DNA of 64,000 nucleotides from a virus, in IMG/VR virus record IMGVR_UViG_3300028025_000092. One strand, given 5' to 3'. Below the pieces are notes generated by a model. That model did no database searches. It worked only from the letters and a program-made list of their open reading frames with translations, and was not told the DNA's origin. The position numbers and the translations under genes were made by a program. Below are positions 9,939 to 42,104 of this stretch, piece after piece (position 1 is the stretch's first letter; every line of letters begins with the position of its first letter).

Positions 9939-10469
9939 ATGTCAAAATTATCCGAGGTAGACAAAAGGCTAATCAATGGTGTAATATCATCTATTGATTG
10001 GGATCAAATAGCTAAGTTTTACAAGATACTCAACAAAAAAATAGGGTATGAACAGGTAAAAATCAAGGGCATAACTAGAAACGATAAAATCACAACAGAT
10101 TCTCTACAAGAGGAATTATTAAGGGTTTTAGAATACGTTATAGACAACGACCTTCCTGAGATGTCATATGGTCCCTGGTTAATTATTTGGACAAATGGAG
10201 AATGGGAGATAATGGAAAGCATCCAAGCAGGTTTAGAAGAAAGCCAAGAAGAAATACAAATTCCTATTATGGAATCTAAGCTTCAGGTTCATTTTATACC
10301 CCAGACTGTTACCATGAAGGAAGACGTTGATCTCCCACAGGATTTTTTCGAGATGGACGATACCGTTATTTTAGAGGGGAGGCTCAAGACGTGCATTGAA
10401 CAAGAAGATTATGTTTTGGCTGGCAAGATAAGAGACGTAATTGAAGAACTTAACAAAAGAAAGAAATGA
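9939..10469 (+). CDS. Hypothetical protein with a C-terminal UVR (UvrB/C) coiled-coil motif
   Basis: IEQEDYVLAGKIRDVI. Confidence 0.65.
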   Translation: MSKLSEVDKRLINGVISSIDWDQIAKFYKILNKKIGYEQVKIKGITRNDKITTDSLQEELLRVLEYVIDNDLPEMSYGPWLIIWTNGEWEIMESIQAGLEESQEEIQIPIMESKLQVHFIPQTVTMKEDVDLPQDFFEMDDTVILEGRLKTCIEQEDYVLAGKIRDVIEELNKRKK

Positions 10470-11389
10470 AGATTAAAAAGCTAAACGAACAATTTTCCCA
10501 ATCATTCTCCGGGGATGGATTTAATAGTTCTAATGGGGTTTTTAAGGTTAGATATAAAGCCTATGACGACCTATCCCAGTCTAAAGGGAGGGAAATTCAC
10601 CCCTATGATCACGTTAATGGCGAGGAATTTCAGGTAGGGGATTTAGTGTTGGTTAATTTAGGTTCTAAAACCAAAAAGAAAATGAAAGCCGAGGTGGTAT
10701 CTTCTTTTAGAACTGAAGACGGAAAAACAACTAAGTTTAAGGTTAAAAGTACTGCTACTAATAAAATCTATGCAGTTCCTGTTTATGCTATTGAATTTTT
10801 ACAAGATAATGGTAACGCGATAACAAAAAAGGGTGCAAATGGAAGCACCATAGCGAATAAAGAAAAATGGTTAAACTCGCTAAAGTATAATAATGGTAAT
10901 TTTATTTGGGGATCATTAGAATCTAAAAAACTTAATATGAAATCAGATATGCTTCTTAAAGAGGGTGACTCGGTAATGGAAAGACCAAGCATAATAGACC
11001 CTGCTATGAGTGTGGTTTTAATAGATGATACACATCCAGATTATGCAACACACATAGAAAATTTTAAAAAACTAGGATCAATCTATACCATCCCAGAAAA
11101 TAAATCAATCTATATCCACAAAAAAGATCCATCTTTTGCAAAATTTAATGATAATCACCTAGTGGTAATAGAGGCTGTAGAAATAGCAAAAATTCTTTCT
11201 AATAAAAAAGACGTTATGGATGAAAAGTATAATGACGTTTTAGCTGCTCAGATTTTAAGAAACAAAGGTCTTAAAGAAGCGTATAAGATAATAGCTTCTA
11301 ATTTTCTTAAGAAATATGGGACATCATACGGAGAATGCGCCGATGAATTTATTCCTTCAATGAAGCAGTATTTACCAGAAAGAAAATAA
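10466..11389 (+). CDS. Hypothetical protein, possibly a virion-internal protein
   Basis: N-terminal MKIKKLNE leader; an SH3/KOW-like segment FQVGDLVLV. Confidence 0.55.
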   Translation: MKIKKLNEQFSQSFSGDGFNSSNGVFKVRYKAYDDLSQSKGREIHPYDHVNGEEFQVGDLVLVNLGSKTKKKMKAEVVSSFRTEDGKTTKFKVKSTATNKIYAVPVYAIEFLQDNGNAITKKGANGSTIANKEKWLNSLKYNNGNFIWGSLESKKLNMKSDMLLKEGDSVMERPSIIDPAMSVVLIDDTHPDYATHIENFKKLGSIYTIPENKSIYIHKKDPSFAKFNDNHLVVIEAVEIAKILSNKKDVMDEKYNDVLAAQILRNKGLKEAYKIIASNFLKKYGTSYGECADEFIPSMKQYLPERK

Positions 11390-11391
11390 TA

Positions 11392-12099
11392 ATGTCGATA
11401 GAGAGAATAAGGAGAAGAATACCGATGCCTGAGGATTTCCCAAAAAAATCACAGGATTTAGTCCCCCCGCAAAAATATACAAACAGACCCATAGAATCCT
11501 ATAAACAATTTATAGGACTTCACAAAGAACAATCATTTGTGATATGTGCGTGTGGATCTTCGTTAAACGATTATACAGATTTTAACAATCATATAACTAT
11601 AGGTGTTAATGATTCAGGCACTAAGGTGTGGTGCAAATATCTCGTTGTAGTTAATGAGCCTAAAACATTTAAATGGAACAGATGGCCATCAGTTAGAATG
11701 AATAACTCTGATTTTGTTTTTACCCATCTCGCTGATTTACCGATTGACAATCCAGATGGAAGAAGAATAGTTGTAAATCTTGGAAAATACGAAGGACTGG
11801 ATCTTGATAATTATGGATCTATAGATTACACAACAAATTCTCCTTACATGGCTATTATTATAGCTTATCAAATGGGTGCTAGAAAAATAGCTTTAGTTGG
11901 TGTTGATTTTACCCCCAACCATTTTTTTGCAGAGACTGGAGATCATATTATTATGAGGGAAATAGAAAGGGTAAAAGAGCAATATTCAAAATTAGGAAGG
12001 GCCTTGATCGAAAAAGGAATTAGAATTGCTAACCTCTCACAGACAAGCTTAATTGAATCCTGGCCCAAAATGACCCTGGATCAATTTGAAACTCTCTAA
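11392..12099 (+). CDS. Maf/DUF115 (CstII-fold) glycosyltransferase-like protein
   Basis: VICACGSSL, TIGVND, YLVVVN and NSPYMAIIIAYQMGARKIALVGVDF. Confidence 0.7.
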   Translation: MSIERIRRRIPMPEDFPKKSQDLVPPQKYTNRPIESYKQFIGLHKEQSFVICACGSSLNDYTDFNNHITIGVNDSGTKVWCKYLVVVNEPKTFKWNRWPSVRMNNSDFVFTHLADLPIDNPDGRRIVVNLGKYEGLDLDNYGSIDYTTNSPYMAIIIAYQMGARKIALVGVDFTPNHFFAETGDHIIMREIERVKEQYSKLGRALIEKGIRIANLSQTSLIESWPKMTLDQFETL

Positions 12100-12114
12100 G
12101 ATTTATTAGTTATA

Positions 12115-12891: not shown

Positions 12892-12917
12892 CATTTTATT
12901 CTTCCGAGGATTTCTTC

Positions 12918-12925: not shown

Positions 12926-12942
12926 TAAAAACAAATACAAAT

Positions 12943-14491: not shown

Positions 14492-15238
14492 GTGGCTAGT
14501 CGCATCAAAAATTTTAATGATTGGATTTTAAATGAGGATCAATTCTACCAAAAAGAATTGAATACTGCATTTTGGCAGGATCAACAGTTTGATCCTTCTA
14601 TCAGAGAAAAACTTCTTCAGATAGCAGAGGAATTTTATGCCACCTTTAAATTGGAAGTTCCTATTAGTGATATCCAATTAACTGGATCCCTTGCAAATTA
14701 TAACTGGACCCCAAAATCAGATCTCGATGTCCACGTTTTAACAGACTTTTCTAAGATCAATCCGGATATAGCTTTAGTTAAAAAAGGCCTAGACGGGCAA
14801 AGATTCGTTTGGAATCTACGTCATAACATAGTTATCAGAGGGTATGACGTTGAGCTTTATCTGCAGGATATTAACGAGCCTCACGTTGCTTCTGGTCTTT
14901 TCTCATTATTAAATAACGAATGGATCAGGGTTCCTAAGTACAATCCGCCACAAATAGACGAAAGAGATGTTCAGCTAAAATTTGAGGGTATTGTTAATGA
15001 TATCAATCAATTAAACGTACAACTTCAAAACCCCGCCCCAGAAATGGATCCGAGAGATCTTTATAATCATGCAGAAAAAGTCAAATCCAAGATCATGAAG
15101 ATGAGAAAGGACGGGCTTGCAGAGAGAGGGGAATTTTCGGTAGAGAATCTAGTCTTTAAAAAGTTAAGAAACGAAGGATATATACAGAATCTGATAGATC
15201 TAATATCAAGATCCTACGAAAAAATATATAACGAATAA
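14492..15238 (+). CDS. Pol-beta-superfamily nucleotidyltransferase
   Basis: LTGSLANYNW..SDLDVHV (GS..DxD) and DVELY. Confidence 0.85.
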   Translation: MASRIKNFNDWILNEDQFYQKELNTAFWQDQQFDPSIREKLLQIAEEFYATFKLEVPISDIQLTGSLANYNWTPKSDLDVHVLTDFSKINPDIALVKKGLDGQRFVWNLRHNIVIRGYDVELYLQDINEPHVASGLFSLLNNEWIRVPKYNPPQIDERDVQLKFEGIVNDINQLNVQLQNPAPEMDPRDLYNHAEKVKSKIMKMRKDGLAERGEFSVENLVFKKLRNEGYIQNLIDLISRSYEKIYNE

Positions 15239-15249: not shown

Positions 15250-17829
15250 ATGTCGGGAATTTACAAAGGATATAATCCAATCTACGAATCTCTTAGAAAA
15301 GATCTATTTGAAGCGGAAAACAAAATTGACACTGATGCTCTTTTAAGAGCTATTTACGATACGTTTGTTAATACCCTAATGAATGGATCAGATGAAGCGG
15401 TAAGAACCCCAGACGGGTTTAAACTATTCATGGATAAGACCCTTCAGTCTAGTTCAATAGACGTTCTTAAGAGCGAATTGAATAATAAGATAGATGAACT
15501 TGCTAAACTTGATAAAAATCAAGCTGAGCCATTAAATCAAACTAAATCATATCTTAACACATTATTCGACACATTAAAAAATGCTATAGGTGAAGATGCC
15601 AAAGCAATAAAGAGTGCTATAGATAAAATGTCAGAATTTACAGGAACTACTATTGGTGGTTTACAAGCTGTTAAAACACAAATGCAACAGAATGAAAGCT
15701 TAACATCTAGATACGTTTCAGAGCAATCCGAGACAAGAACAGGGGAAGAAGCAAATTCAGAAGAAGGTGAAAATGATAAATGGTATTTCCAATTATCTAA
15801 AAACGTGTTAGATACCGCTACTTCTTTTGCAGGAGAAACAACAGCTGCTCTTTCTAATAAATCTTTATCCGGTGACTCTGGTATTCAAAAATTTGCACAG
15901 GACGGACAGGATTATCTATCAAAAGCTAAGGCTTTGTCTGTTACTGGCGGAAGAAAGGGATTTATCGTTATGGGCAAGGTTAAAACTGCTAGCGGTGATA
16001 TAAAAGGAAAGGATTATAGAATTCAAGTTAAAAATCTTATTAATGATATAATTAGACAGAGAGAAGAATTTCAAAAATTAAAGTATAGACTTTCAAATAT
16101 TCCAGCACCACCACAAGTGGTTACTGTTTGTCCTACTGGTATGACCTTTGATGCAGCTAAAAATGCTTGCGTGTATGTTAATATTCCAGCACCAGTCGTA
16201 AATCAGGGAGGTGAAGGTCCTCAACCACCAAAACCACCAAAACCAACTCCACCAGTTCCAACAACAGGATGTCAATTTCCTATTCAGATTACAACAAAGA
16301 AATGTTCTGAGGTTGCACAACTACAGGGCAAGTTGATGAGTATGGGAGGATGTATTGCTGATATACTTAATACAGCAGGAGGAGCAGATGGTAAATACGG
16401 CAATAAAACTGCTAAATTAGCAAATATAGCATATGCATATCTTACTAAATCATCAGCTTTTAATCCTACTGGAGACTTAACACAGGACATCTATAATACA
16501 ATAATGGCAGGAGGTCAAATGACATATCAAGCTCCTGCAAAAGAATCTTTAGAAATTAAAGCAGATTCTAAAATAGTAGAGAATAAAATATTTGAAAGAG
16601 AATATAAAACCGGTATGCCTGTGCTATCATTCTCGGATTTTTCTGAGGTACTATCAGAAGCAGGATACGTCATCGAGGAAGATGTTGCAACTAGCGGTAA
16701 ATCCATCGCAGATTGTATTTGTTCAACTTATGCTTCTGGCCAAATGGATACAGCATGTTTTAGTAACATAGTTCCTGTTCCAAATCCAACAGGAGGAACA
16801 GGCGGAACCGGCGGAACCGGAGCAACAGGAGCAACAGGAGCAACTGGTGGTGGGGAAGAAATACCAACAAGAGATGATTGGAAAGGTCTTAAGTATGTAA
16901 ATACTGGGTCTTATCCTATTTCCTTTGATGAGAGTCTTTTAAGCTTCTGGTCTAAAGAGGTAGCAATCACAGCATTAAGCTTTGCTATCCCAGGGTCTGG
17001 TTATCTGTTAAAAGCAGGATCAACAGGTCTTAGATCATTAGGGGTTAAAGCAGCAACTAAAGTAGGAGCTCAAAAACTTGCAACAAGAATTGCAGGTAAA
17101 GCGGTGACAACAGCAATTGCTAAGGGGATCACAAAGAAAACAGCAGCTCAAGCTTTAAGTGGTCTTACTAGACAATACTTTATGAAATACGGAGCTATTC
17201 CTATTGCAAAAAGAACAGCAGCTGGCTTAATCGGCGGTGCAGTTGGTGGTGCAGCATTAGACTTCTTATCAGGAAGAGACACTTTTGTTATTACAACAGT
17301 AGAAGGATTTATAGAAAGAAATCTATTGCTTGGAATAGCAAAAGGATTGGTGAATACCCTGGATGGATATGTTAGTGATGATGATTGGGCATCAATCTCT
17401 CAAACCCTTGCAGTAATTAAAGGAGGTTGGACGGTAGATGACAGCGATAAACAAGTATCTGCGTGGGGAGAACTTAAAAGGCTTTATGTTGAATCCGAGG
17501 GAGAAGATCTTGTAGCAGATATACAAAGTGTTAAAGCTAAAATGGGAGACGTTGAAGGATTCCCTAATATGAAATCAGTTTCCCCGCTATCAAGTTTAAA
17601 CGATGTTGATTGGGATCTTGCTAAAGCAGAAACGCTAAGATTTGTTGATGTACTAGAAAGAAACGAGAGTACTCTATCACAGAATTTAGATAAACTTCCA
17701 GGATCATATGTTACTGCTCACGTAGAAGGTAATTATCAAGAAATTGATGAGAATGGAGAAGAAGTTGGAGGAGAAGGTGGAGAAGAAGGAGGAGAGAAAG
17801 ACGATTCTCCAAAAAAATCAACCTACTAA
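15250..17829 (+). CDS. Large putative virion-internal protein with a PG-binding-like domain and glycine-zipper segments
   Basis: EVAQLQGKL..ADGKYGNKT; GGTGGTGATG linker; AAGLIGGAVGGAAL; AATATATA at 15223-15230 upstream. Confidence 0.55.
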   Translation: MSGIYKGYNPIYESLRKDLFEAENKIDTDALLRAIYDTFVNTLMNGSDEAVRTPDGFKLFMDKTLQSSSIDVLKSELNNKIDELAKLDKNQAEPLNQTKSYLNTLFDTLKNAIGEDAKAIKSAIDKMSEFTGTTIGGLQAVKTQMQQNESLTSRYVSEQSETRTGEEANSEEGENDKWYFQLSKNVLDTATSFAGETTAALSNKSLSGDSGIQKFAQDGQDYLSKAKALSVTGGRKGFIVMGKVKTASGDIKGKDYRIQVKNLINDIIRQREEFQKLKYRLSNIPAPPQVVTVCPTGMTFDAAKNACVYVNIPAPVVNQGGEGPQPPKPPKPTPPVPTTGCQFPIQITTKKCSEVAQLQGKLMSMGGCIADILNTAGGADGKYGNKTAKLANIAYAYLTKSSAFNPTGDLTQDIYNTIMAGGQMTYQAPAKESLEIKADSKIVENKIFEREYKTGMPVLSFSDFSEVLSEAGYVIEEDVATSGKSIADCICSTYASGQMDTACFSNIVPVPNPTGGTGGTGGTGATGATGATGGGEEIPTRDDWKGLKYVNTGSYPISFDESLLSFWSKEVAITALSFAIPGSGYLLKAGSTGLRSLGVKAATKVGAQKLATRIAGKAVTTAIAKGITKKTAAQALSGLTRQYFMKYGAIPIAKRTAAGLIGGAVGGAALDFLSGRDTFVITTVEGFIERNLLLGIAKGLVNTLDGYVSDDDWASISQTLAVIKGGWTVDDSDKQVSAWGELKRLYVESEGEDLVADIQSVKAKMGDVEGFPNMKSVSPLSSLNDVDWDLAKAETLRFVDVLERNESTLSQNLDKLPGSYVTAHVEGNYQEIDENGEEVGGEGGEEGGEKDDSPKKSTY

Positions 17830-17868: not shown

Positions 17869-19950
17869 ATGAGTCTTAACCCCGAATTCGTTTTAGTCTT
17901 GGAAAAATCTTCACACAATCTGAAGACCGAGAAAAGTGGTAACGAATACTATCTGGAAGGTATTGCAGCAGTTTTTGGTAAAGAAAACTCTAATCAAAGA
18001 ATATATGAGGAAAGAGAATATCTTCCTCATCTTCAATATTTAAAAGAAAAGATCGAACAAAAAAGATTGGTAGGTGAGTTAGACCATCCTAAGGAATTTG
18101 ACGTTTCCCTTAAAAACATTTCTCACCTAGTTGAGGAATTAGCATACAATCAAGGGGACAGAACCTTAAGAATTAAAGTAAAGCTTTTAGACACACCAGC
18201 AGGTAAAATTGCTAAATCTTTAGTTGATGCAGGTATTCCTGTTTCTATTTCTTCAAGAGCAGCAGGTAACGTAATGGAAAACAAAAAAGTACAGATTAAA
18301 AAGATCTTTACTTATGATCTAGTAGCTGATCCTGGATTCGAAAATGCACAATTAGAAAGAGTTTATGAAAGTCTTGGTTACAATTTAGAAGAAAAAAGTA
18401 TGGCTGAATCCATCCTAAAGGGTCTTCCTCTTATGAACGAAAGTTTAGGATTAGAAAATGATTCTAATTTTAAGATATATAGAATTAACGATCAAGAAAA
18501 AATACAAAAGCTTCTAGATAAGGAGCCAAATAAGAGTTTAATCATGGAAAATAATTTCGTTACAGCGGAAGAAATGAACGGATATTCTAGACTAATCAAA
18601 AAAGAAATGGATACTATTAAAGGATCCATTGAGTCTTTGAAGGGTGTTAAAGAATCTTCCAAAATAACAGAATCTTCCTCTCTTGAAGAGAGAGTATTAA
18701 AATTAGAAAAGTATGCTGATTATTTAGCAGAGAATTTAGAGGCTTCTATTAAGTATGGTGAATACCTAGCAGAAAACCTAGAAGACTCTGTTTCTTACTC
18801 AAAGTATTTAGCAGAAAATCTAGACAAGTCTATATCTTATGGAAAATATCTAGCAGAGCATCTAGACAATAACATTTCTTATTCCGAATATATTGCAGAA
18901 AATGTAGACACGAACATGACAGCAGTTAAAGGTTTAACAGAAAAAGTTGATCAATCTATTGCTTATGCAGAATATGTAGGAGAGAACGTAGATAAAAACA
19001 TTAGATACAGTGAGTATCTAGCAGAAAACCTAGATAAGAACATTTCTTACTCTGAGTACTTAGCAGAAAATGTTGACAAGAACATTTCTTACTCTGAGTA
19101 TTTAGCAGAAAACTTAGATAAAGGTTTAGCTTATTCTGAATACCTAGCAGAAAACCTAGACAAGAACATTTCTTACTCTGAGTACTTAGCAGAAAACTTA
19201 GATAAAGGTTTAGCTTATTCTGACTACCTAGGAGAAAATTTAGATAAGACTGTACATTACAGCGAATATATTGCAGAAAAACTATCTAACAATATTAGTT
19301 ATGCAGAATACATTGCAGAATCTGTAAATGCATCTTCAGGAACTAAAGAAGTTAAAGAAGCAGTAGTTAAAGCAGTTTCCGAGAGCGCAAACACTTCAGG
19401 ATTTGCAGGTAACTACACCGGAATTTCCAACAAAATCGACGATTTATTAAATACTGTCAGTAAACAAAAGACAGATGAAATAGCAGAAAATAAGAACTAT
19501 CCTTTCTTAAAGCTTATGGGCGAACAAGGACAAAGAGAATTCCTATCACTGCACGAAGGCCAAAAACAAAAGGTCGCAAAATCCTTAAACGAAAACAATT
19601 ATTCATCCGAAAAAGAAGTAATTGAACTTATGGGTAAAGCCTTGGTTGAACAAAATCAATCCGGCGAAAAATTCCTAGATCTAATGCCAGAAAAATATAG
19701 AACTTCATGGGAAATGATGACAGAGTCACAAAAGGCTTCAGTTATCGCTCAAAGCAAGTTTCATAAATTGGACACCCCTTATCAAATCCAGAATTTCTGG
19801 GCTACCAGAGGTATTTCAGTTACAAAGGCAAATATCGAAAGAATAGACGAATCCCAAAATCAAACAATCTCAGCCCCTCAGCCAAAAGGAGTTTCTAGAG
19901 AATATCTAGATAATCTTTCAGAAGCTTTAGGAGCTAGATTTAAAAAATAA
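17869..19950 (+). CDS. Prohead protease (T4 gp21-like) fused to a scaffold/core domain
   Basis: NQRIY, GELDHP, LLDTPAG, ISSRAAG and TYDLVADPGF, followed by a 14-aa repeat coiled coil; lies directly upstream of the major capsid gene. Confidence 0.92.
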   Translation: MSLNPEFVLVLEKSSHNLKTEKSGNEYYLEGIAAVFGKENSNQRIYEEREYLPHLQYLKEKIEQKRLVGELDHPKEFDVSLKNISHLVEELAYNQGDRTLRIKVKLLDTPAGKIAKSLVDAGIPVSISSRAAGNVMENKKVQIKKIFTYDLVADPGFENAQLERVYESLGYNLEEKSMAESILKGLPLMNESLGLENDSNFKIYRINDQEKIQKLLDKEPNKSLIMENNFVTAEEMNGYSRLIKKEMDTIKGSIESLKGVKESSKITESSSLEERVLKLEKYADYLAENLEASIKYGEYLAENLEDSVSYSKYLAENLDKSISYGKYLAEHLDNNISYSEYIAENVDTNMTAVKGLTEKVDQSIAYAEYVGENVDKNIRYSEYLAENLDKNISYSEYLAENVDKNISYSEYLAENLDKGLAYSEYLAENLDKNISYSEYLAENLDKGLAYSDYLGENLDKTVHYSEYIAEKLSNNISYAEYIAESVNASSGTKEVKEAVVKAVSESANTSGFAGNYTGISNKIDDLLNTVSKQKTDEIAENKNYPFLKLMGEQGQREFLSLHEGQKQKVAKSLNENNYSSEKEVIELMGKALVEQNQSGEKFLDLMPEKYRTSWEMMTESQKASVIAQSKFHKLDTPYQIQNFWATRGISVTKANIERIDESQNQTISAPQPKGVSREYLDNLSEALGARFKK
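18712..19326 (+). repeat. About 15 x 42-bp coding repeat (YSEYLAENLDKNIS)
   Basis: The 14-aa period is directly visible in the translation. Confidence 0.95.
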
Positions 19951-19964: not shown

Positions 19965-21722
19965 ATGCAACTTATCAATCAACATGAAATCTATGATACC
20001 TGGGCACCAATCTTGGAAAGCAAAACAGGTATTCAAGAGAGAGGTAAATTAGACTGGTTAACTAAATACTGTCATTACCACTCATTAAACGAATCTGCCG
20101 GAGCGTATAACTCTTTAGGCGTATTAAACGGTATGGGCCAAGTATCTCCTGCTTCTAACGTAGGTTTAAACGGCGGTCCTGCTGGATTCTATGCAGGCGG
20201 ATCTTATTCTGGAACTGGTCTTGGTTCTGGCGATAAATTCCCTTCTCTTTTACCTTTAGCTATTCAAGTAGCTGCTAAAACAGTAGGTTTTGATATCGTT
20301 CCAGTTATCCCAATGAGCGGTCCTACAGGCGTATTATCATACTTAGACTATGTTTACGCAGGTGGTAAATTATCTGGTACTGACTCTGTATCTCCATACA
20401 CAGCAAACACTCCAGATCTAATCAAAGTTCCAACAACAACAGCTTCTCCTGTTACTGGTTTAACAGTAGGATCTACTTACCTTTTAGGTGCTTCTGGTCT
20501 TTCTTCAACAAAAGATTTAGACTCTGCAGGTGTAGGTGCTTTAGTAGCTGGTAAATTCGTTGGTAACTCAAGAATTGATGGCTTCCCAATTTTCCAAGTA
20601 GTAGCAATCACAACTGGTTTCTCAATTGCTGCAGCTATCGACGCAGACGCAGTTATCTACTCTGGTTCATTCGTAACCTCAACAAACGTTTACACAATCT
20701 CTGCTACAGTAGGTTATGCAAATGGTGCTGCTCAATTAGTTAAAACTTTAGAAGATCACGTACAAGGATTTACTGGTCTTGGAACTGCTAACGACGGTAC
20801 ATGGTCTGGTCCTTATGTAGACGGTACTAAAGCTTACGATCCAATGTCAAGAGGAACTGCTGAAAGCACTTACTTCAAATCATTAGGTCTTTCTACATTT
20901 ACTAAATTTGTAGAAGCTGGTACTTTCCAAGTTGCTGCTTCTGTTACAACTGAGCAAATCCAAGATTTAAACAAGCAATTCGGTATCGACGTAGTTTCTA
21001 TGATCGAGAACGCACTTGTTAATGAGGTTTCTCAGTCTATCAACAAGCACATCTTATCTAGAGCATTTGCTTTAGGATGGTCTAACCACTATGAATTTGC
21101 AAACACCGAATTAGGTGGAGCATCTTCTGCTTCTCTAAACATCAACTTAAAAATTGGTGCTGGTGGAGCTTCAACCGCATCTTTCATCGGTAAGGACAAT
21201 GGATCTTTAACAATCTATACTCCTGGCGATATCGCTACAGGCGGATACGAGAACCAATCAACTGTACAAAGAAGATTATTCTCAAGAATCTTGGCTGCTG
21301 CTAACGTAGTAGCAAACAGAGGAAGAAGAGGACCTGCTAACTTTATTGTTACTAACGCTCAAGTAGCTTCTGCTTTACAAGATATCTCTCAATTCACATT
21401 TGCTCCTTTCACAAACACGTTAACTCAAAATAACGGTACTTTATATCCAGTTGGTTCAATCGCTGGTATGACCGTTTATGTTGATCAAAACATGTCTTTC
21501 GGCGATACGAGAGTATTGGTTGGAAGAAAAGGTGCTGATGACGAACCAGGTATGAAATTTATGCCTTACATGATGGCTGAGTCAATTCAGACTATCTCTG
21601 AAGGTACAATGTCACCTAAAATTGCAGTTAAGTCTAGATACTCTTTAGTAGAGGCTGGACATCATCCTCAAACGATGTACTTATGCTTTAAAGCTATAGT
21701 GCCTGCAACTGGTATCGCTTAA
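19965..21722 (+). CDS. Major capsid protein (T4 gp23-like)
   Basis: VIPMSGPTGVL, EQIQDL..GID, NEVSQSINK, RRGPANF, PYMM and PKIAVKSRY; strongly biased codon usage. Confidence 0.95.
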   Translation: MQLINQHEIYDTWAPILESKTGIQERGKLDWLTKYCHYHSLNESAGAYNSLGVLNGMGQVSPASNVGLNGGPAGFYAGGSYSGTGLGSGDKFPSLLPLAIQVAAKTVGFDIVPVIPMSGPTGVLSYLDYVYAGGKLSGTDSVSPYTANTPDLIKVPTTTASPVTGLTVGSTYLLGASGLSSTKDLDSAGVGALVAGKFVGNSRIDGFPIFQVVAITTGFSIAAAIDADAVIYSGSFVTSTNVYTISATVGYANGAAQLVKTLEDHVQGFTGLGTANDGTWSGPYVDGTKAYDPMSRGTAESTYFKSLGLSTFTKFVEAGTFQVAASVTTEQIQDLNKQFGIDVVSMIENALVNEVSQSINKHILSRAFALGWSNHYEFANTELGGASSASLNINLKIGAGGASTASFIGKDNGSLTIYTPGDIATGGYENQSTVQRRLFSRILAAANVVANRGRRGPANFIVTNAQVASALQDISQFTFAPFTNTLTQNNGTLYPVGSIAGMTVYVDQNMSFGDTRVLVGRKGADDEPGMKFMPYMMAESIQTISEGTMSPKIAVKSRYSLVEAGHHPQTMYLCFKAIVPATGIA

Positions 21723-21824: not shown

Positions 21825-22943
21825 ATGAGCATTATTAACGATTTTAGATTCTATAATGATTGTAAGAATTCCCTTTTAGAATCTTTCGGTGATGTTGAAA
21901 TAGCAAAAAACAAATTATCACATAAGGGCTACGAAAATAACGAAGATTTAGAGGAAACCCTAATTGCAATTAAAGAATCATTAGGGGATAAAATTATTAA
22001 CTTCTTTTCAAAGAATCTAGGAGGAGATATTTCTAAGGTATCAAAAATCTTACAGGATATGAAATCCGAAGAAATTAAATTCATTACCGATGAGCACGAA
22101 TCAGAATCTAAGTTTTATAAGCTAAGTGCAGCTTTATCCCAGCTTAAAAAGGACAAAGCAGATTCTAGTGAAGTCACACAATATGCTGATAAGTTAAATA
22201 AGCTAAAGAAGTTTATTAAAGATTTAATGTCATCACATAATTCAATCATGGATGATCTAGAAAAACAAGTTAACATTATTACTAAAAAGAATAATAGAAA
22301 AGCTGACTATTACAATCTTAAAAGAGCGGAGGATTCAGTGGAGACTAAAAAATTAAGAGCTGATTATAAAAAGAAGCTTATTACACAGGCAGAGGATTCT
22401 GAATACCTGGATGATATCCAAAAGATTCTAGGTAATCCTAAAGATGCACAAAAAGATCTAGATGCTGCAAAAGAAGTATTAGCAAAAGAGAAGGATAAAA
22501 TAGGAGCTGCAGGAGAGACATCTTCTTTGGTTAAACCAGATCTTGACGAAAAAAATGAAGATTTTTATAAGGAAATAAGAGCAACAGTTAAGGATATAGA
22601 AGACTATACAAAAAAATCTTTAAGCAAGTTCGAAAATAAGGAAGAAGCTAAAAAGATAAACAGAGGAACCTTTAATATGATGCAAAAAGCATTTGATACA
22701 AAGGTAAGAAGAGCATCCAATGTAATAGAGACATTTAAAAGTAAGATCTCGCAAGTTAACTCAACTTCTGATAATGAAACATCATCTGAGACAAATAAAG
22801 CTATAACCAATCTTTTAAATTTAGAGAGACAGGTAAGTAACCTTAAATATTTCACCTGGCCAGCGTCTGATTTAGAAGTTCAGAAAGAAACGATTCTTGC
22901 TATCATAGGTAAGGTTAATAAACAAATAGAAGTAGCTGCATAG
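21825..22943 (+). CDS. Helical, Lys/Glu-rich putative internal head protein
   Basis: LLES and IKES sites; shares a segment layout with the next ORF (ES/EG..I..F..GD). Confidence 0.55.
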   Translation: MSIINDFRFYNDCKNSLLESFGDVEIAKNKLSHKGYENNEDLEETLIAIKESLGDKIINFFSKNLGGDISKVSKILQDMKSEEIKFITDEHESESKFYKLSAALSQLKKDKADSSEVTQYADKLNKLKKFIKDLMSSHNSIMDDLEKQVNIITKKNNRKADYYNLKRAEDSVETKKLRADYKKKLITQAEDSEYLDDIQKILGNPKDAQKDLDAAKEVLAKEKDKIGAAGETSSLVKPDLDEKNEDFYKEIRATVKDIEDYTKKSLSKFENKEEAKKINRGTFNMMQKAFDTKVRRASNVIETFKSKISQVNSTSDNETSSETNKAITNLLNLERQVSNLKYFTWPASDLEVQKETILAIIGKVNKQIEVAA

Positions 22944-22947
22944 TAGG

Positions 22948-23787
22948 ATGAAAAAGTATTCAGAATTCATAGCAGAAAACGTTAATGAAGGATTTATAAA
23001 AAATCTTATAGGAGGAATTACATCATTTCTAAGAGGTGATAAAAACTCGATTTTGGCCAACATAGAAAAAATGAAGGAGGTTGAAAAAGATTTTATAAAT
23101 AAATCTGATGAACTTAGTTATGATATATTCTATGCAGAAACCAAAAGAGGTCAAACATCAGATATTACCGCTTCTGCTAAACAAAAATCACTAATGAGTA
23201 AAAGAGCATTGGATGCTCTAAGAATATCGAAAGATGGTGAAATGAATCTTCTAGTAAAAACTATTTCTAGAATATGCAAAGATAACCCAAAACTTATAGA
23301 TTTTTATAATCAGGAAAAAGCATCAGCTGATGTTGAAATAGCACAATATGCTTATGAGAAGGCCAAAAAATTCAAAGACTCCCAATATGAGAATGAGTTT
23401 TATGACCAGTGGAAAAATCTAGAGACTTCTGCCAAAAAAATGAAATATGATTCACCAAATCTGGATGATGATACAATAGGGGAGAATAATGGTATGTGGG
23501 ATCTTTCCCTAAGAGAGTTTACGAATCAAATAATGGGTTTACCCAAAGCTGATTTATTAGATCTTGTAGAGGATGGTTCGGATCTAAGATGGAAATTAGC
23601 AGATGATCTAAGAATCAAAGACAGTAGTCTAAAGGAATTCAAAACAAGATCCTACAGGAGCGGAGATATGGCAAGCTATAATTTCACAAAAGAAAAAATT
23701 GCGGAAATAAAAAATAAATACAGGGTAGCCATACAATCTATTGATAATAAAGTGTCAATAATAAAGAGTCGACTTCGGAATATATAA
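22948..23787 (+). CDS. Putative internal head protein with a T4 CTS-like leader
   Basis: Starts MKKYSEFIAE, compared with the T4 capsid targeting sequence MKTYQEFIAE. Confidence 0.65.
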   Translation: MKKYSEFIAENVNEGFIKNLIGGITSFLRGDKNSILANIEKMKEVEKDFINKSDELSYDIFYAETKRGQTSDITASAKQKSLMSKRALDALRISKDGEMNLLVKTISRICKDNPKLIDFYNQEKASADVEIAQYAYEKAKKFKDSQYENEFYDQWKNLETSAKKMKYDSPNLDDDTIGENNGMWDLSLREFTNQIMGLPKADLLDLVEDGSDLRWKLADDLRIKDSSLKEFKTRSYRSGDMASYNFTKEKIAEIKNKYRVAIQSIDNKVSIIKSRLRNI

Positions 23788-26669: not shown

Positions 26670-28093
26670 TGTGCGGAATACTAATTGCCAATAATCCCTC
26701 CGAGGAAAGAATAAACTCCATTGCACACAGGGGTATAGAATACTCAACACATTCTGATGAATCTGGTTTAACCCTTGTACACCACAGATTGCCTATCCAG
26801 ACAGCAATTGGTGATAAGTGGATACAGCCTATAGAGGTATCAAAAGATCGATATCTTTTATTTAATGGGGAGATTTTTAATTATCCCCTTGGATTTAGCT
26901 CAGATACTGAGTATTTAGTGAGTCTTTTTTCAACCTTTGACTTTTCATCACTTGAGATGTTTAGCGCTATCTACGAGCCTTATATTAAGTCTTGGGATGG
27001 ATTCTGGGCTATCTGTCTGGTTGACATGTCAAAAAAAGATGTATTCTGCTTTACCGATCCTCTAGGAAAGAAATGCCTATATTATAATGAAATGGGAGAG
27101 ATATGCTCTGAGATGAAAGGATTGATTACGGGGAACTCTTTTATAGATAACGGTTTTATGGGAGGGGTAAGAAAATGGGGATACATTCCTAACGAATCTA
27201 CCCCGTTTACTGATATCAAAAAAATAAAACCAAACACCTTTTATAAGTGGAATTTCTCCTCCCCGTCTTTCAAACAGGAGTACGGTCCTTATTTCGCATT
27301 TAAACCATCCAAATTTGCATTTGAATCCGAAGACATATTATTGGATTGGGTATGGGAAAAAACTGAAGCAGCGACAAGAAATAGACTGTTAAGCTTAGAT
27401 TATCCTATATCTATTCTACTGTCCGGAGGATTAGACTCTTCTATCATAGGTGGACTCCTATTAAAACTGGGGGCTGATGTTAGCTGGTATACCATAAATA
27501 ATGGGCCAGATAATGATTATGTTAAAGAATGTGAGTCTTATTGGGGAATCAAGGTAAATCGATTGGATTATACCATGAATGAGGATTCAATGAATTTACC
27601 AGATCTTTATTTTAAGTGGAACGAAAGCCCGGTAGATCTGGGAAGTGTTATTCCACAGTACCTCCTATTTGATGCAATTAAAAAAGGGACTGATACACGT
27701 ATAGTATTATCGGGTGACGGGGCAGACGAAATGTTTGGAGGATATAGAAGAATTAACGAGTATGATTCACAGGCATCTGATGTTTTTCATGAATTAACTT
27801 ATTACCACCTTCCTAGACTCGATAAAATGAGTATGGCTCATACTTTAGAACTTAGAAATCCATTTTTAAATCTAGAACTTATGCAATTAGCTTTGGCTCT
27901 TCCGTTTGAAATGAGAAAGAATAAAACCATACTTAAGAAAGCATTTAAGGGTTTAGTTCCGGATTCGGTCATAGAAAGAAAAAAGCATCCTCTTAAGAAC
28001 GAAAAAATAGCAAAAGACCCTATGGAATATAGGATAGAATCTTTAAAATATTTCGAAGAAGGATTTAATCAATACAAGGAAGGTCTAAAATAG
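26669..28093 (+). CDS. asnB: Asparagine synthetase (glutamine-hydrolysing)-like amidotransferase
   Basis: N-terminal MCGI (Ntn Cys), HRG, FNGEIFN, LLSGGLDSS, SGDGADEMFGGY and LELRNPFL. Confidence 0.9.
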   Translation: MCGILIANNPSEERINSIAHRGIEYSTHSDESGLTLVHHRLPIQTAIGDKWIQPIEVSKDRYLLFNGEIFNYPLGFSSDTEYLVSLFSTFDFSSLEMFSAIYEPYIKSWDGFWAICLVDMSKKDVFCFTDPLGKKCLYYNEMGEICSEMKGLITGNSFIDNGFMGGVRKWGYIPNESTPFTDIKKIKPNTFYKWNFSSPSFKQEYGPYFAFKPSKFAFESEDILLDWVWEKTEAATRNRLLSLDYPISILLSGGLDSSIIGGLLLKLGADVSWYTINNGPDNDYVKECESYWGIKVNRLDYTMNEDSMNLPDLYFKWNESPVDLGSVIPQYLLFDAIKKGTDTRIVLSGDGADEMFGGYRRINEYDSQASDVFHELTYYHLPRLDKMSMAHTLELRNPFLNLELMQLALALPFEMRKNKTILKKAFKGLVPDSVIERKKHPLKNEKIAKDPMEYRIESLKYFEEGFNQYKEGLK

Positions 28094-29569
28094 ATAGATT
28101 CCACCTAGAGCATTTCCTTTTGATTTAAGCGGGGAGTAATCAGATGGCTCTTTCGTTAAGATAAACGTCTTGCTTGAGTCTACTACAAGACCTGCCATTT
28201 CCATTAAAGCTCTATTAATTAAAATCGGAGTACTTTTGTTTATTCTATCAACAAGAGAGAATTTAACTTTTTTATACACCATTTCTCCAAATTCTATATC
28301 TAGAAGAATAACTGGTCTTTTGTCGGTTTGATCCCCTACCTCTGCATAGGAGTATTCTATAATTCTGTTACTATAGCTTTTACCCCCTATTGTCCAGTTT
28401 AAAAATCCATCAGCTTCTTCTGAAAAATCAGCATGCAGAGAGCATGCTAAAGCTCCGTTTCCAGTGTCAAGTTTACCTACGAAATTTCCTATTCCTTTAA
28501 CCTCGAACATTTCTCTAAATCCTACCATTTTTCTCGGGTAGTTCCAGTTTTTCTTGTTTAAAATAAAATCTAGTATAATTCCCGTTACATCTAATCCAGT
28601 TGCCGTTTCTATACCATCAGTACCCGGTGAAGCATTAACTTCTAATACGTATGGTTGACCTGTATTTTTTTCTAATATAACATCAACCCCACACCATGAA
28701 CATTCTGTAGCTTTTGCAGCTTCTATCGCTATGTTTTCAATTTCTTCTGGTATTTCGACGGATTCTGCTTGACCGCCGAGAGAAACGTTTGTTCTAAAAT
28801 CATTCTCTATTCTATTTCTTCTCATAGAGGCTATGATTGTATAATTATCGCCGTTATATGAGTTTTTAGTTCCAACCACATGAATTCTTAAGTCGTAGTC
28901 TGCTTCTATTTTTTCTTGTAAAATTAGCTCAGTCTGTGGGGAAAGCTTCCATATTGTTTGTAGTGTGGAAAGCAAAGATGCTATGGAATCTACCTGGAAA
29001 ACACCTATTCCCTTTGTACCACTTAGTAATTTTACTACAATAGGAAATATTCCTCCGACTTTCTTTACTGCATTTTCTATATCCTCCTCAGATGATACTA
29101 AAGCTGTTTTTGGTGTTGATATCCCCTTCTCTTGTAGTTTTTGTACTGTATCAAGTTTATCCTCACAAAGAAGAACGGATTTTAAAGAATTAACGGAAAC
29201 GAACCCAAGGGATTCTAGTTTTTCAAAGAATTTAACTGCACCCGTAGAATTAATAGAAGATCTTCTAGCCAATACGACAGTATTTCTAACGTCTATTTCA
29301 TATTTATTTTGGCTTCCCTTGTTTCTGATAAAAAAACTACCAGTCTCTGTTCTTTCTATTTCACCATGCGAGGTATTAATTATAATACACTTAAATCCTA
29401 ATGAAGAGGATTTTTGCATCATTTTTTTAACCGTTGGAGCCAAAGAATTTTTTTTTGATTCTAACTCAGTTGTTAGAATAACCAGAGAGACCGGTTTCTT
29501 GCTTGGAGCAGGAACCTTGTTAGCCCCATGGAAAATAAAATCGTCCTCGTTTTCTGTTAAATAGTGCAT
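28085..29569 (-). CDS. rimK: RimK-family ATP-grasp ligase fused to a C-terminal RimB-like retropepsin-fold protease
   Basis: DKL, PIVVKLLSGTKGIGV, LQEKI, DLRIHV, FRTNVSLGG, GVDVI and LEVNASPG; C-terminal KLDTGN..SLHA..RPVI..FSLVDR..ILINR. Confidence 0.88.
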   Translation of the reverse strand: MHYLTENEDDFIFHGANKVPAPSKKPVSLVILTTELESKKNSLAPTVKKMMQKSSSLGFKCIIINTSHGEIERTETGSFFIRNKGSQNKYEIDVRNTVVLARRSSINSTGAVKFFEKLESLGFVSVNSLKSVLLCEDKLDTVQKLQEKGISTPKTALVSSEEDIENAVKKVGGIFPIVVKLLSGTKGIGVFQVDSIASLLSTLQTIWKLSPQTELILQEKIEADYDLRIHVVGTKNSYNGDNYTIIASMRRNRIENDFRTNVSLGGQAESVEIPEEIENIAIEAAKATECSWCGVDVILEKNTGQPYVLEVNASPGTDGIETATGLDVTGIILDFILNKKNWNYPRKMVGFREMFEVKGIGNFVGKLDTGNGALACSLHADFSEEADGFLNWTIGGKSYSNRIIEYSYAEVGDQTDKRPVILLDIEFGEMVYKKVKFSLVDRINKSTPILINRALMEMAGLVVDSSKTFILTKEPSDYSPLKSKGNALGGIYLF

Positions 29570-29649: not shown

Positions 29650-30192
29650 TTAGTTAAAAAATTGATTAAAAGAGGGATTTGCAATAGATTCTTGCTCTTC
29701 TTCTTCCATGTCTTCTTCCATGTTCTCTTCCATGTCCTCTTCCATGTTCTCTTCCATGTCTTCGTCTTCCTCTTCTGTTAATTCTTCACCATCAAACTCG
29801 TCTTCGTCTTCTTCATCTATGTTATACTCATCGGCGATTGATTGAAATTCATCTTCATCCATTTCGTAGATATTAGATTCTTCTTGTTCTTCTTCCTCGT
29901 TATCGGAGTCTTCGTCAAATTCCATATCATCAGATTCGGTGTCGTCGTCATCAGATTCTATGTCACCATCCTCAGATTCCATATCGAAAGATCCCTCTGA
30001 TCCTTCGGTTTCCTCATTTTCATCTTCAGTTTCATCATCAGATTCTATAGAGTCCGCACCACCATCAGAGTCCATTTCTGTGTCCATATCCATCTCATCA
30101 TCGGATTCAATTTCAGTGTTATTGTCTTGGTCAAGTGTTCCTTCAGTGTATTGTTTAGAAAACTCCTCAAAACTTAAGATCTTTTTTTCCAT
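29650..30192 (-). CDS. Hyper-acidic (Asp/Glu/Met-rich) protein
   Basis: Long D/E tracts and EEDMEENM repeats; SFEEF leader and SFNQFFN tail; flanked by its own promoter and terminator. Confidence 0.8.
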   Translation of the reverse strand: MEKKILSFEEFSKQYTEGTLDQDNNTEIESDDEMDMDTEMDSDGGADSIESDDETEDENEETEGSEGSFDMESEDGDIESDDDDTESDDMEFDEDSDNEEEEQEESNIYEMDEDEFQSIADEYNIDEEDEDEFDGEELTEEEDEDMEENMEEDMEENMEEDMEEEEQESIANPSFNQFFN

Positions 30193-30239: not shown

Positions 30240-30494
30240 CTATTCGCCGGGTTCTCCCATAGAAGCAGCACTTCCTGATTCAACAGCACCATGCCCTGGA
30301 TAATCTATCTTAGATTGATGTTTAAATATTGCATCACCATATCCTACATACTCATAAGGCTTTTCCAGCTTTATTTCGTGGAAAGGAGATCTATCCTCTT
30401 TGCTCATATTTTTAGGATTCCACGGATCGCTTATAACTTTTAGAAATTCTTTGAATTCTAAAATCTCCCTCTTTTTAACGTCTTTCTGATGCAT
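30240..30494 (-). CDS. Small hypothetical protein
   Basis: Co-directional with its neighbours; carries an ILEFKEF motif. Confidence 0.6.
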   Translation of the reverse strand: MHQKDVKKREILEFKEFLKVISDPWNPKNMSKEDRSPFHEIKLEKPYEYVGYGDAIFKHQSKIDYPGHGAVESGSAASMGEPGE

Positions 30495-30508: not shown

Positions 30509-31201
30509 TTAGTTTAAGCCTAATAGACTCATTATTCCTCCGCCCATTCCAGTATCCCCAGTTTGAGCTTCCGGTTTAGCAGCTTTAGCTATATCTTTTT
30601 CAGAAAATTTACCACCTCCAAATATATCTTTGAATGATGTACCTTCCCCACATACTACTCCTTCTATCTTTTTATTTATCATCACTGAGAATTCAGTAGT
30701 ATTTAAATAGTTAGTCGCGGTTTCTCTAACCGTTGCTGCTGCCGTTCCTAGAATGCCGCTATTCATGTTAATATCCAGTCCTAATCCTCTAGCCAGTATA
30801 TCTATTGCTTTTTCTTCAAGGGTCTCTTTGAGTCCATCCGCTATTGCCTGAACCCAATATTTGCATGATCCTTCTCCAAAGTAATCTCCTATTTTTGTAA
30901 ATTGAATTTGTTCAACCACGTTCTTTGCAAATTCAGTAAAGAATTCATTATTATCTGGTAGACCCATTTTTTGAAGTAACCATCCTGCAGCATAGTTTTT
31001 CATTCTGTCGGTAAAACCGTCAGAAAGGGTTGAACCTAAGCTTTTTATAAGATCCCAAATTCCTTCATTAATTTCTTCTACAGTGTTTCCCTTAGACACC
31101 ATATCATTATAATGGGCTTCTAATCCCTCAACAAGTCTCACGTATTGTTCGTTGTTAATTGATTCGTCTAATTTGAACTGAGAATATTTGATAACTTTCA
31201 T
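30509..31201 (-). CDS. Putative internal head protein
   Basis: MKVIKYSQFKLDES leader; INEGIWD. Confidence 0.6.
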   Translation of the reverse strand: MKVIKYSQFKLDESINNEQYVRLVEGLEAHYNDMVSKGNTVEEINEGIWDLIKSLGSTLSDGFTDRMKNYAAGWLLQKMGLPDNNEFFTEFAKNVVEQIQFTKIGDYFGEGSCKYWVQAIADGLKETLEEKAIDILARGLGLDINMNSGILGTAAATVRETATNYLNTTEFSVMINKKIEGVVCGEGTSFKDIFGGGKFSEKDIAKAAKPEAQTGDTGMGGGIMSLLGLN

Positions 31202-31278: not shown

Positions 31279-31884
31279 TTGAAACACCTATTCTCTTATA
31301 AAGATCTATTCGAAAGTACCTCTGCAGGATCACAGGATAGGGGTACGGTGGATTTATCCACTTTTAAATTTGCGATCAATTATGATCCTAGGCTTGGTTA
31401 CACCAAAAAAGATTTCTCAATGGATCTTATTGAGATCTATAAGGGTATGTCAAAAAGGGAAAGATCTGAATTAATGGATGTGATTTTTAAATCAGGTGGG
31501 GTGTTTAGGATTTCAGAGATATCTGAACTTTCCCAAGAAATCGTAGATGAAATCATAAAAAATGTAGAAACCCTTCTGGACAGTAAATCTGTTTATAAAA
31601 TGCAGGTACTCCCTGATGGGTATATTCTTTGTTATGAGGGGTTAAAACATAAAGGAAGGATTTGTGATGTCTATTATTCCCCTTCGGATGAAAAAGTTAA
31701 AATATCATACACTGACACATATCCAGAAATGGAGACTGTTACGATTTCAGCGGAATCTTTTAATCCTTCCTCGGTAAACATCGAAACTGATGATTTCTTA
31801 TCAACAAAAAATAAATGCGATAATTTTATAGGAACAAACCAAATTATAGCATCGAAAGATAGTCCCGATAATTATTCACTATAA
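31279..31884 (+). CDS. Hypothetical protein with a CTS-like leader (TTG start)
   Basis: MKHLFSYKDLFES. Confidence 0.6.
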   Translation: MKHLFSYKDLFESTSAGSQDRGTVDLSTFKFAINYDPRLGYTKKDFSMDLIEIYKGMSKRERSELMDVIFKSGGVFRISEISELSQEIVDEIIKNVETLLDSKSVYKMQVLPDGYILCYEGLKHKGRICDVYYSPSDEKVKISYTDTYPEMETVTISAESFNPSSVNIETDDFLSTKNKCDNFIGTNQIIASKDSPDNYSL

Positions 31885-39347: not shown

Positions 39348-39356
39348 TATAATTAC

Positions 39357-40292: not shown

Positions 40293-41296
40293 AAATAGCA
40301 TTAATCACCGGGGTAAACGGACAGGACGGATCATATTTAGCAGAGTTGCTTCTCGAGAAGGGGTATATGGTTCATGGCACAATCAGAAGATCGTCATCAT
40401 TCAATTCTGGAAGAATAGAACATTTTAGGGAACATCCTAATTTTAAAAGACACTATATGGATCTGACAGATTCAGGAAATGTCTCCCATATAATTTCACA
40501 ACTAAAACCCGACGAAATCTATAATTTAGCTGCGCAGAGTCACGTTAAAATATCTTTCGATATTCCAAATTATACTGGACAGGTCGATGCTATGGGAACA
40601 TTAAATGTTTTAGAAGCAATTAGAACTCATTCACCAAATTCTAAATTATATCAGGCTTCTACGTCTGAATTATACGGCAAGGTACAGGAAACCCCACAGA
40701 AAGAAACAACTCCATTCTATCCAAGATCACCCTACGGAGTTGCAAAACTATATGGATATTGGATTGTTAAAAACTACAGGGAGTCTTATAATTTATTTGC
40801 ATGTAATGGAATTCTTTTTAATCACACATCTCCTCGCAGAGGTGAAAACTTTGTTGAGAAGAAAATTATAGATTCCCTTTGTCAAATTAAAAAGGGAAAA
40901 ATAGATATACTAACACTAGGCAATCTTTCCGCCCGTAGAGACATAGGTCATGCTAAAGAATACGTTGAAGGAATGTGGAGAATGCTACAATTGGAATCCC
41001 CTGAAGATTTTGTTCTTGCAACAGGTAAAACCTATTCTATTAAAGAGATGGTCAATATGGTTTGTCAAAAATTAGATATAGATCTAGATTGGAAAGGTGG
41101 AGGAGAACAAGAAATAGCAATAGATAAATCGTCTGGTAGAATTATTATAGGGATAGATCCCAAGTATTATAGACCAGCTGAAGTTGAGCTTTTACAGGGG
41201 GATGCTTCTAAAGCTAAATCAGTATTAGGATGGGAACCAACCCTATCTCTGTCAGAAATATTTGATGAGATGATAGCAGAATCACTAAAGGATTAG
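40289..41296 (+). CDS. gmd: GDP-mannose 4,6-dehydratase
   Basis: [34 protein letters not shown] and [11 protein letters not shown]. Confidence 0.97.
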
Positions 41297-41526
41297 TGAT
41301 TAGTGTTTGATACAATTTCATTTGCTTTTAAAAGGGTTTCTACTGTTTTAACATCGTACTTGGTTTGTCCAGGAACCCCCCAATCTTTTTGTTCACCCCA
41401 ATTAATAAATCCCTGATGTGTTATATGATTTCCTGAATTATAAGAAAAATCGTGATGACCTTCTTTAGCAGATGATTTTTCAAACTCGTTTCTCGAGCTG
41501 ATGTTTTTATATCCGTATTTTTCCAT
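41293..41526 (-). CDS. Small hypothetical protein
   Basis: Translationally coupled to the upstream minus-strand gene. Confidence 0.55.
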
Positions 41527-42104
41527 TATTTCTTTTTCTTTCTTAGGTTAGCCTTTGCTTGTTTATAAAGTGCCTTATCTCCCATTTTAGAGGTCTTACC
41601 TCCTGTAACAAATGAGTTAACCCTTGCCATTGCCCATTGTTGGGGATTAGTTCCTGGAATATGGCCTATTTTCCATGCTGCGTATCCTCTTTTCCACACT
41701 TTCTTTAAAATGCCTAACGGAAATCTGGTTTTTTCAGATTTCTTTTTAAGAGCTTTATTTACCGGACTAGAAACAGAATCCACACCCTCATTAAGATTAT
41801 CCAAGTTATATTCTTCGTTTAATTCGTTAAAAACCTCCCATGCTGCAATTTCTGCTGCTTCTAAAAAGGAATCAAATCCTAATAGTTCGTTGTTTTCGTT
41901 TTCCCCAAACATTTTCTTGTATTTTTTTGTGTATTGACTAGTTTTTGTATCTACTGGTTTACCCTTTCCTGCTTTTCCTGACTTATAATCAGCATCCCAT
42001 TCAGTATATGCCGACGGATCATTATCAGCCTTATCCTTATTCTTTTTAATCTCCCTTTTCATTATTCTGGGATTTTTGGACAAATATTTCTTAGGAACTT
42101 TCAT
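41526..42104 (-). CDS. Basic protein with a DUF5824-like C-terminal domain
   Basis: VWKRGYAAWKIGHIPGTNPQQWAMARVNSFV; internal FDSFLE..LNEG; GAATATATA at 42110-42118 (minus). Confidence 0.6.
   Translation of the reverse strand: MKVPKKYLSKNPRIMKREIKKNKDKADNDPSAYTEWDADYKSGKAGKGKPVDTKTSQYTKKYKKMFGENENNELLGFDSFLEAAEIAAWEVFNELNEEYNLDNLNEGVDSVSSPVNKALKKKSEKTRFPLGILKKVWKRGYAAWKIGHIPGTNPQQWAMARVNSFVTGGKTSKMGDKALYKQAKANLRKKKK

Follow-up and report, generated by a model that had tools for sequence, protein, structure and literature searches.

Predicted T4-type capsid-targeting leaders on a small set of late proteins in an uncultured jumbo phage

The internal proteins IPII/IPIII and IPI of phage T4, and its Alt protein, bear a capsid-targeting sequence (CTS) at the N-terminus (Mullaney and Black 1996, reviewed in PMC9026906 and PMC9958956). 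Does a phage far removed from T4 use leaders of the same kind, and on which of its proteins? The question is raised by a 64,000-nt stretch of viral DNA with a GC content of 35% (IMGVR_UViG_3300028025_000092), referred to below as the window. An earlier note on this DNA had described a large cohort of proteins with T4-type leaders, enzymes among them, and had proposed that they are loaded into the head for injection. Our analysis points to a small but real cohort of T4-type leaders. Open reading frames (ORFs) 22948, 30509 and 29650 are the clearest members, 15250, 21825, 23810 and 31279 are probable members and the nucleotidyltransferase 14492 is a plausible one. ORFs are named by their first coordinate in the window and are listed in Table 1.

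The strongest resemblance to T4 was found in ORF 22948. Its N-terminus, M-K-K-Y-S-E-F-I-A-E, had been said to match the T4 sequence M-K-T-Y-Q-E-F-I-A-E at eight of ten positions. This was confirmed with T4 IPII and IPIII read from AF158101, and all other N-termini quoted in the note were present in the sequence at their given coordinates. Among 20 homologues down to 32% identity Y4 and F7 were invariant and N13-E14-G15 was near-invariant. In T4 IPIII residues 4 and 7 govern targeting, and residues 8 and 10 govern processing (PMC9026906). The 22948 family therefore appears to retain the targeting determinants. The conserved cut site of the family is most likely after E14; cleavage of 22948 is predicted behind this invariant residue, possibly with an additional cut after E10. 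Leader codons differed synonymously among relatives, which shows selection on the peptide. In a profile search of 1.8 billion representatives 43 relatives of 22948 were detected (E down to 1e-3). These were mostly divergent, but at the N-terminus retained an aromatic pair with hydrophobic-[NDS]-E-[GSA] no more than a few residues behind it. In an AF2 model aa 1-28 formed a low-confidence appendage ahead of long helices. No match was obtained for 22948 by tblastn against 50,697 phage records, and Foldseek searches of its model against PDB and BFVD gave generic helical matches only, with no fold relative.

The criteria by which the larger cohort had been drawn up were too loose to support it. 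An aromatic-x-x-aromatic pair within the first 20 residues was observed 13 times with 14 expected, which is no better than chance, and a hydrophobic-x-E site, present in 35 of 62 ORFs (42 sites against 29.6 expected), did not discriminate. A stricter motif, consisting of [YF]-x-x-[FWY], a gap of 0-8 residues and hydrophobic-x-E-[GSAN], was learned only from the distant 22948 relatives. It was present at the N-terminus of 30 of 38 of these relatives and also recovered T4 IPII and IPIII. In the other 60 ORFs of the window it was found at five N-termini, those of 15250, 19965, 21825, 29650 and 30509, against an expectation of 0.51 from internal positions (P 1.8e-4). Composition-preserving shuffling of residues 2-32 gave a mean of 0.31 matches and none of the 5000 shuffles reached five. 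In windows taken from the interior of these proteins the counts were 1, 0, 0 and 0. All N-termini with the stricter motif belonged to head-module or late-island genes. ORFs 23810 and 31279 were outside the stricter-motif matches and had a related conserved N-terminal site; a hydrophobic-aromatic-E-S site was observed at three N-termini with 0.33 expected.

Patterns were also tested by DNA-pattern scans of three related IMG/VR contigs. In the 245-kb relative M-K-(1-3 residues)-[YF]-x-[ED]-F was found only in the orthologues of 22948 and 30509, and the reversed-pattern control gave no match. N-P-x-[YF]-E-S was confined to two N-termini per related genome, those of the orthologues of 15250 and 23810, again with no control match. 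The five ORFs in which the first 15 residues were most over-conserved compared to the body were 29650, 15250, 23810, 31279 and 22948. ORFs 15250, 21825, 22948 and 23810 were only 29-60% identical in relatives in which the protease and the capsid protein were 85-98% identical. The proteins behind the leaders are otherwise unrelated. All-against-all BLAST detected no paralogy, and comparison of the 22948 and 30509 families by hhalign gave a probability of 1.9%, with the alignment confined to the cleavage-site segment. Paralogy of 22948 and 30509 was rejected on this lack of body homology.

The predicted leaders start at residue 1 and are 7-19 residues long. The aromatic pair is at the T4 positions 4 and 7 in 22948 and is displaced by 2-4 residues in 30509, 29650 and 14492, while 23810 and 31279 are without a canonical pair. 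Of conserved sites of the gp21 type, related to (L/I)-x-E, 22948 has V-N-E14, 29650 has Y-T-E and most homologues of 30509 have hydrophobic-x-E-S. The leader of 30509 was retained in 50 homologues down to 48% identity, and the protein has a second near-invariant site, I-N-E-G, at aa 44-47. Among relatives of 29650 the first 15 residues were 97% identical and the remainder, with a hypervariable middle, 46%. The corresponding values were 89% and 54% for 15250, 61% and 39% for 23810, and 70% and 45% for 31279. A leader near-identical to that of 31279 was found on an unrelated ORF of the huge phage LR756502, in which similar leaders on unrelated ORFs occur together with the same scaffold repeat described below.

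The claim that most of these genes have a late promoter held up well. Ten of the 12 copies of the GATATATA box were located 16-28 nt upstream of a co-oriented start, and the position was conserved in relatives for 14492, 15250, 17869, 21825, 28085, 29650, 30509 and 31279. GATATATA is regarded as a structural-gene (late) promoter because it also serves the tail fibre and protease-scaffold genes. Every cohort member has a conserved GATATATA box or is downstream of one. ORFs 30509, 29650 and 21825 have their own box, which in 21825 is conserved in relatives, and the box is 16 nt upstream of 14492 and 22 nt upstream of 31279.

Table 1. Features discussed in the text, with window coordinates. Leaders are predictions and are numbered from the first residue.
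Feature	Position	Strand	Leader or other characteristics
307-aa protein in tail-fibre operon	10466..11389	+	Conserved [LI]-N-E at aa 6-8
Pol-beta-type nucleotidyltransferase	14492..15238	+	15-aa leader (nt 14492-14536), F-x-x-W-x-L-N-E
Fast-evolving head-module protein, 859 aa	15250..17829	+	Leader aa 1-13 (nt 15250-15288), end N-P-I-Y-E, next S
gp21-type prohead protease (~aa 16-209) fused to scaffold domain	17869..19950	+	PHROG 207, Pfam Peptidase_S77/S80
14 tandem 14-residue scaffold repeats	18712..19341	+	aa 282-491 of ORF 17869, after protease domain
Major capsid protein, gp23 family	19965..21722	+	Pfam Gp23 E 2.9e-39; 21% identical to T4 gp23
Highly charged head-module protein, 372 aa	21825..22943	+	Leader aa 1-19 (nt 21825-21881), end L-L-E, next S
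All-helical head-module protein, 279 aa	22948..23787	+	Leader aa 1-14 (nt 22948-22989)
Fastest-evolving head-module protein, 751 aa	23810..26065	+	Leader aa 1-7 (nt 23810-23830), N-P-L-F-E, next S
RimK-family glutamate ligase with retropepsin-like C-terminal domain	28085..29569	-	TIGR00768 156 bits (cut-off 143)
180-aa protein, 50% Asp+Glu	29650..30192	-	Leader aa 1-17 (nt 30142-30192), end Y-T-E, next G
Conserved 84-aa protein	30240..30494	-	F-K-E-F at aa 14-17; weak
Late protein, 230 aa	30509..31201	-	Leader aa 1-13 (nt 31163-31201) with K-Y-S-[EQ]-F
Late protein, 201 aa, TTG start	31279..31884	+	Leader aa 1-12 (nt 31279-31314), end D-L-F-E, next S
Basic 192-aa protein with DUF5824	41526..42104	-	Internal Y-T-E-W; no GATATATA box

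The source of the window is an uncultured jumbo phage of the T4 superfamily with a genome of about 245 kb, to which T4 is only a distant relative. Related IMG/VR contigs were up to 245 kb long with an estimated completeness of 86%. No relative is in culture. In the closest phage record the capsid protein is only 43% identical; the nearest capsid proteins among phage records, from an uncultured 462-kb phage and from Lak phages, were 39-43% identical. Identity to the T4 counterparts was 21% for the capsid protein, 28% for the protease and 22% for the portal. The window encodes a protease of the gp21 family, a capsid protein of the gp23 family and a scaffold core. ORF 17869 matched the head maturation protease family PHROG 207 with an E value of 1.7e-35 and Pfam Peptidase_S77 with 33.9 bits (cut-off 27), as well as S80, and its protease domain matched 1465 phage records, T4-like phages among them. 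In the capsid protein the two-part leader motif is located at aa 10-19, a second site, L-N-E-S, at aa 41-44, and W-A-P-I-L-E-S was aligned to W-K-P-L-L-E-G of T4 gp23.

The scaffold domain of ORF 17869 consists of repeats of strict period with the consensus Y-S-E-Y-L-A-E-N-L-D-K-N-I-S, every unit of which contains aromatic-x-x-aromatic-[LI]-x-E. The consensus was unchanged in six relatives, and LR756502 has 11 such repeats despite a capsid protein of just 32% identity. When a matrix of the 14 repeats was run over the window, aa 4-17 of 22948 scored 18.6 bits, the top value, followed by 10.2 bits for the next. The maximum over 200 shuffled proteomes was 14.7 bits. The exact T4 pattern (aromatic-x-x-aromatic-hydrophobic-x-E) occurred 14 times in the scaffold ORF and just three times in about 19,500 residues outside it, one of them at position 4 of 22948. 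Among T4 head proteins the same pattern selects IPII, IPIII and the gp23 maturation site. No cohort member besides 22948 was recovered by the scaffold-repeat matrix, hence mimicry of the full repeat appears specific to this protein.

Several further observations concern the repeat and the ORF that contains it. The CTS pattern at F59-E65 of T4 gp23 (AF158101, 99000-112000) coincides at its end exactly with the maturation site of this protein. With the repeat matrix of the present phage, the T4 CTS scored 10.7 bits and K-E-W-L-A-E-N of T4 gp22 scored 10.5 bits; a direct likeness of the T4 CTS to T4 gp22 or gp23 is no more than suggestive. In an 84-aa ORF that follows the baseplate wedge gene (60693-60947), Y-Y-E-Y-L-G at aa 9-14 ranked second or third among matches to the scaffold-repeat core, with 10.8 bits, which may be due to chance. 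V-Y-E-S is found at aa 165-168 of ORF 17869 (18361-18372), where the protease domain ends. Its type is that of the N-terminal sites of 15250, 23810 and 31279. Protease and scaffold may be parted by autoprocessing at this candidate site. Past the protease domain, ORF 17869 contains an internal GATATATA box with an in-frame Met, codon 226, behind it (18474-18546), so that a nested start may yield a separate product with the scaffold only.

The best explanation, which we consider fairly probable, is that head assembly follows the T4 way and that a small set of late proteins enters the core by short N-terminal leaders. A gp23-type shell would form around a core of gp21-type protease fused to the repeat scaffold. 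As in T4, the aromatic pair three residues apart would be the targeting part of the leader, and the hydrophobic-x-Glu after it would be cut by the protease. The leader of 22948, being close to one 14-residue scaffold unit, would dock by replacing a unit in the self-association of the scaffold. The docked leader would then be cut at the same type of site that dismantles the scaffold, and the mature protein would be freed inside the capsid. What the analysis establishes are the sequences, their conservation, the motif statistics and the families to which the protease and the capsid protein belong; that leaders dock and are cut, and that the proteins stay in the head and reach the host, is inferred. 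Of the cargo-loading proposal of the earlier note, the T4-type machinery and the conserved leaders on mutually unrelated, mostly fast-evolving late proteins are supported; the loose motif is not, and neither are RimK and ORFs 10466, 30240 and 41526 as members.

A number of observations weigh against this explanation or parts of it. E10 of 22948, the equivalent of the T4 cut site, varies among the 20 homologues. In 22948 homologues the repeat match dwindles to a core of Y-S-[ED]-F-[IL] with no change in the scaffold, and part of the 18.6-bit score may therefore be luck. The N-termini of 21825 and 14492 are no more conserved than the bodies of these proteins. There are at least two sequence classes of leader, and the strict T4 pattern fits just two genes per genome. 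The motifs were partly refined after inspection of the data. Function and fold searches assigned nothing to the mature cohort proteins.

The leaders could be true propeptides, removed by the protease, on proteins that are not cargo at all. The proteins would then serve assembly alone, as parts of the core or scaffold comparable to T4 gp67 and gp68, and be degraded or expelled at maturation. The acidic composition and conserved ends of 29650 resemble the acidic prohead core protein gp67, 21825 is highly charged and helical, and 22948 is composed of long helices without an enzyme-like fold. Furthermore, the capsid protein shares the motif, as expected if the motif marks membership of the prohead and not cargo as such. 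The divergence of 15250, 21825, 22948 and 23810 compared to protease and capsid protein is on the other hand the pattern of host-facing internal proteins, and the nucleotidyltransferase, an enzyme, bears a leader in several phage lineages. We regard this alternative as rather unlikely for the cohort as a whole, although 29650, 21825 and 22948 itself may, by analogy with gp67 and gp68, be assembly-only core proteins and not injected cargo.

It is less probable still that the resemblance reflects protease recognition only, with the aromatic pair serving as an exosite for a gp21-type protease, common to scaffold, capsid propeptide and a few further substrates, and with neither targeting nor scaffold mimicry involved. 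Such a role would fit the finding that the pattern finishes not only in the T4 CTS but also at the known maturation site of T4 gp23, and that candidate sites in the capsid protein and in each repeat of the scaffold are preceded by it. However, changes at residues 4 and 7 of T4 IPIII affect targeting and those at 8 and 10 processing (PMC9026906), and a protein must already be within the prohead to encounter the protease; we consider the alternative improbable. We consider chance resemblance of all members other than 22948 very improbable. N-termini rich in Lys, Glu and aromatic residues are common in an AT-rich genome, the loose criteria are at chance level and a 7-residue leader matrix gave only 2.5-3-fold N-terminal enrichment. 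Against this, neither the shuffled N-termini nor the internal windows attained the observed motif count, the leaders are conserved where the bodies diverge, and N-P-x-[YF]-E-S is restricted to two N-termini of the 245-kb genome.

Loading of two enzymes, a nucleotidyltransferase and a peptide ligase, had been part of the original proposal, and they fared differently. The assignment of 14492 to Pfam NTP_transf_2 is borderline (21.2 bits, cut-off 21), and no PDB sequence match was found. The best fold matches were CD-NTases, TENT5 and aminoglycoside nucleotidyltransferases, all with E > 1e-3 and a TM of about 0.25. Its leader was retained in 120 homologues, and in a sister clade at 65% identity it has exact T4 spacing and ends L-F-E-N. 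Homologues in three huge phages have different leaders of the same type (K-F-Y-E-F or K-L-N-E-F); those of cyanophages and Maribacter phages are without the aromatic pair. In the AF2 model the leader, aa 1-17, is a separate low-confidence helix ahead of the fold. The leader is thus conserved and of the right type, but the N-terminus is not over-conserved compared to the body, and 14492 remains plausible, if somewhat doubtful, as head cargo. RimK, ORF 28085, was rejected as a cohort member. It has a late promoter, but its N-terminus is the least conserved part of the protein (the first 15 residues 41%, the body 79% identical), the start that had been quoted is not conserved and there is no leader. 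The retropepsin-like domain of RimK (aa 414-470; NCBIfam, RloA3-like, E 1.3e-8) was noted separately; the gene has its own conserved late box and adjoins the gene for the acidic protein.

Three other proposed members found no support. ORF 10466 lacks an aromatic pair and has only the conserved [LI]-N-E, 30240 has no cleavage site downstream of its aromatic pair, and the supposed copy in 41526 is internal and hence unable to serve as a leader. Pfam, PHROG and NCBIfam gave no function for 10466, 15250, 21825, 22948, 23810, 29650, 30509 or 31279. Scores in the ESM Atlas for 15250 and 23810 were 0.82, which is chance level. ORF 15250 was considered as a portal and rejected because the portal genes are located at 30-2987. 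These are tandem paralogues (30-1289 and 1296-2987) that are 49% identical and match PHROG 213 with E values of 1e-58 and 1e-61; the first probably begins upstream of the window start. LR756502 has one portal copy.

Some observations were made on the late island and on LR756502. The C-terminus of 29650 (29650-29685) is an uncharged tail, N-P-[AS]-F-N-x-F-F-N, that was conserved in all relatives and may be a docking element. One group of relatives shows an inversion of the block that carries the 29650, 30240 and 30509 orthologues. In LR756502 (642 kb) many small ORFs near the head genes (211281-241281) begin with Lys-aromatic leaders, among them a 67-aa ORF at 5526-5729 of this piece with F-S-E-F-I-T-E.

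The predicted leaders share several features with the T4 CTS. Both are N-terminal propeptides of 10-19 residues on unrelated proteins with aromatics at positions 4 and 7 and an end of the type hydrophobic-x-Glu, and both accompany a protease of the gp21 family, a shell of the gp23 family and a scaffold core, with the leader of 22948 matching IPII/IPIII. T4 Alt is a precedent for an enzyme as cargo. Unlike in T4, the conserved cut site is shifted to E14, the leaders are of more than one class, and a leader corresponds closely to a single unit of the tandem-repeat scaffold fused to the protease. An array of this kind is absent from T4, whose gp22 contains single weak look-alikes only. T4 gp67 and gp68 are small core components that gp21 cleaves. 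In gp67 the N-terminal part is helical and the tail strongly acidic, as in 29650. No sequence homology to gp67 or gp68 is detectable, however, and the N-termini of these two do not resemble the CTS. The giant phages phiKZ, 201phi2-1 and SPN3US have long N-terminal propeptides on head and ejection proteins (PMC5694885). There too, cleavage after Glu is by a protease related to gp21, processing affects many proteins of the inner head, and the propeptides are inferred to direct proteins into the prohead. Most of these propeptides exceed 100 residues, with [SAG]-x-E sites, and a scaffold resembling gp22 has not been identified (PMC5694885), whereas the present phage has T4-like leaders of 7-19 residues and an obvious scaffold.

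According to a 2023 review the mechanisms that localise proteins in the T4 core "remain mysterious", and the core's structure is unresolved (PMC9958956). The present phage offers a mechanistic lead because a leader resembles the scaffold repeat unit. Fourteen near-identical units and a cargo leader like one of them make a concrete docking hypothesis in the form of a simple peptide-repeat pair. The T4-type short leader appears to persist where capsid proteins are just 21% identical, and candidate head-delivered proteins, including an enzyme, can be named in an uncultured jumbo-phage lineage. More speculatively, leaders throughout the T4 superfamily could be copies of the self-association unit of the scaffold. 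Any protein could then be recruited by gaining one repeat with a built-in protease site, and in this phage the nucleotidyltransferase would be one of the proteins loaded in this way. This extension is considered somewhat unlikely. If true, the nucleotidyltransferase would be injected with the DNA and would act on the host ahead of any phage gene expression.

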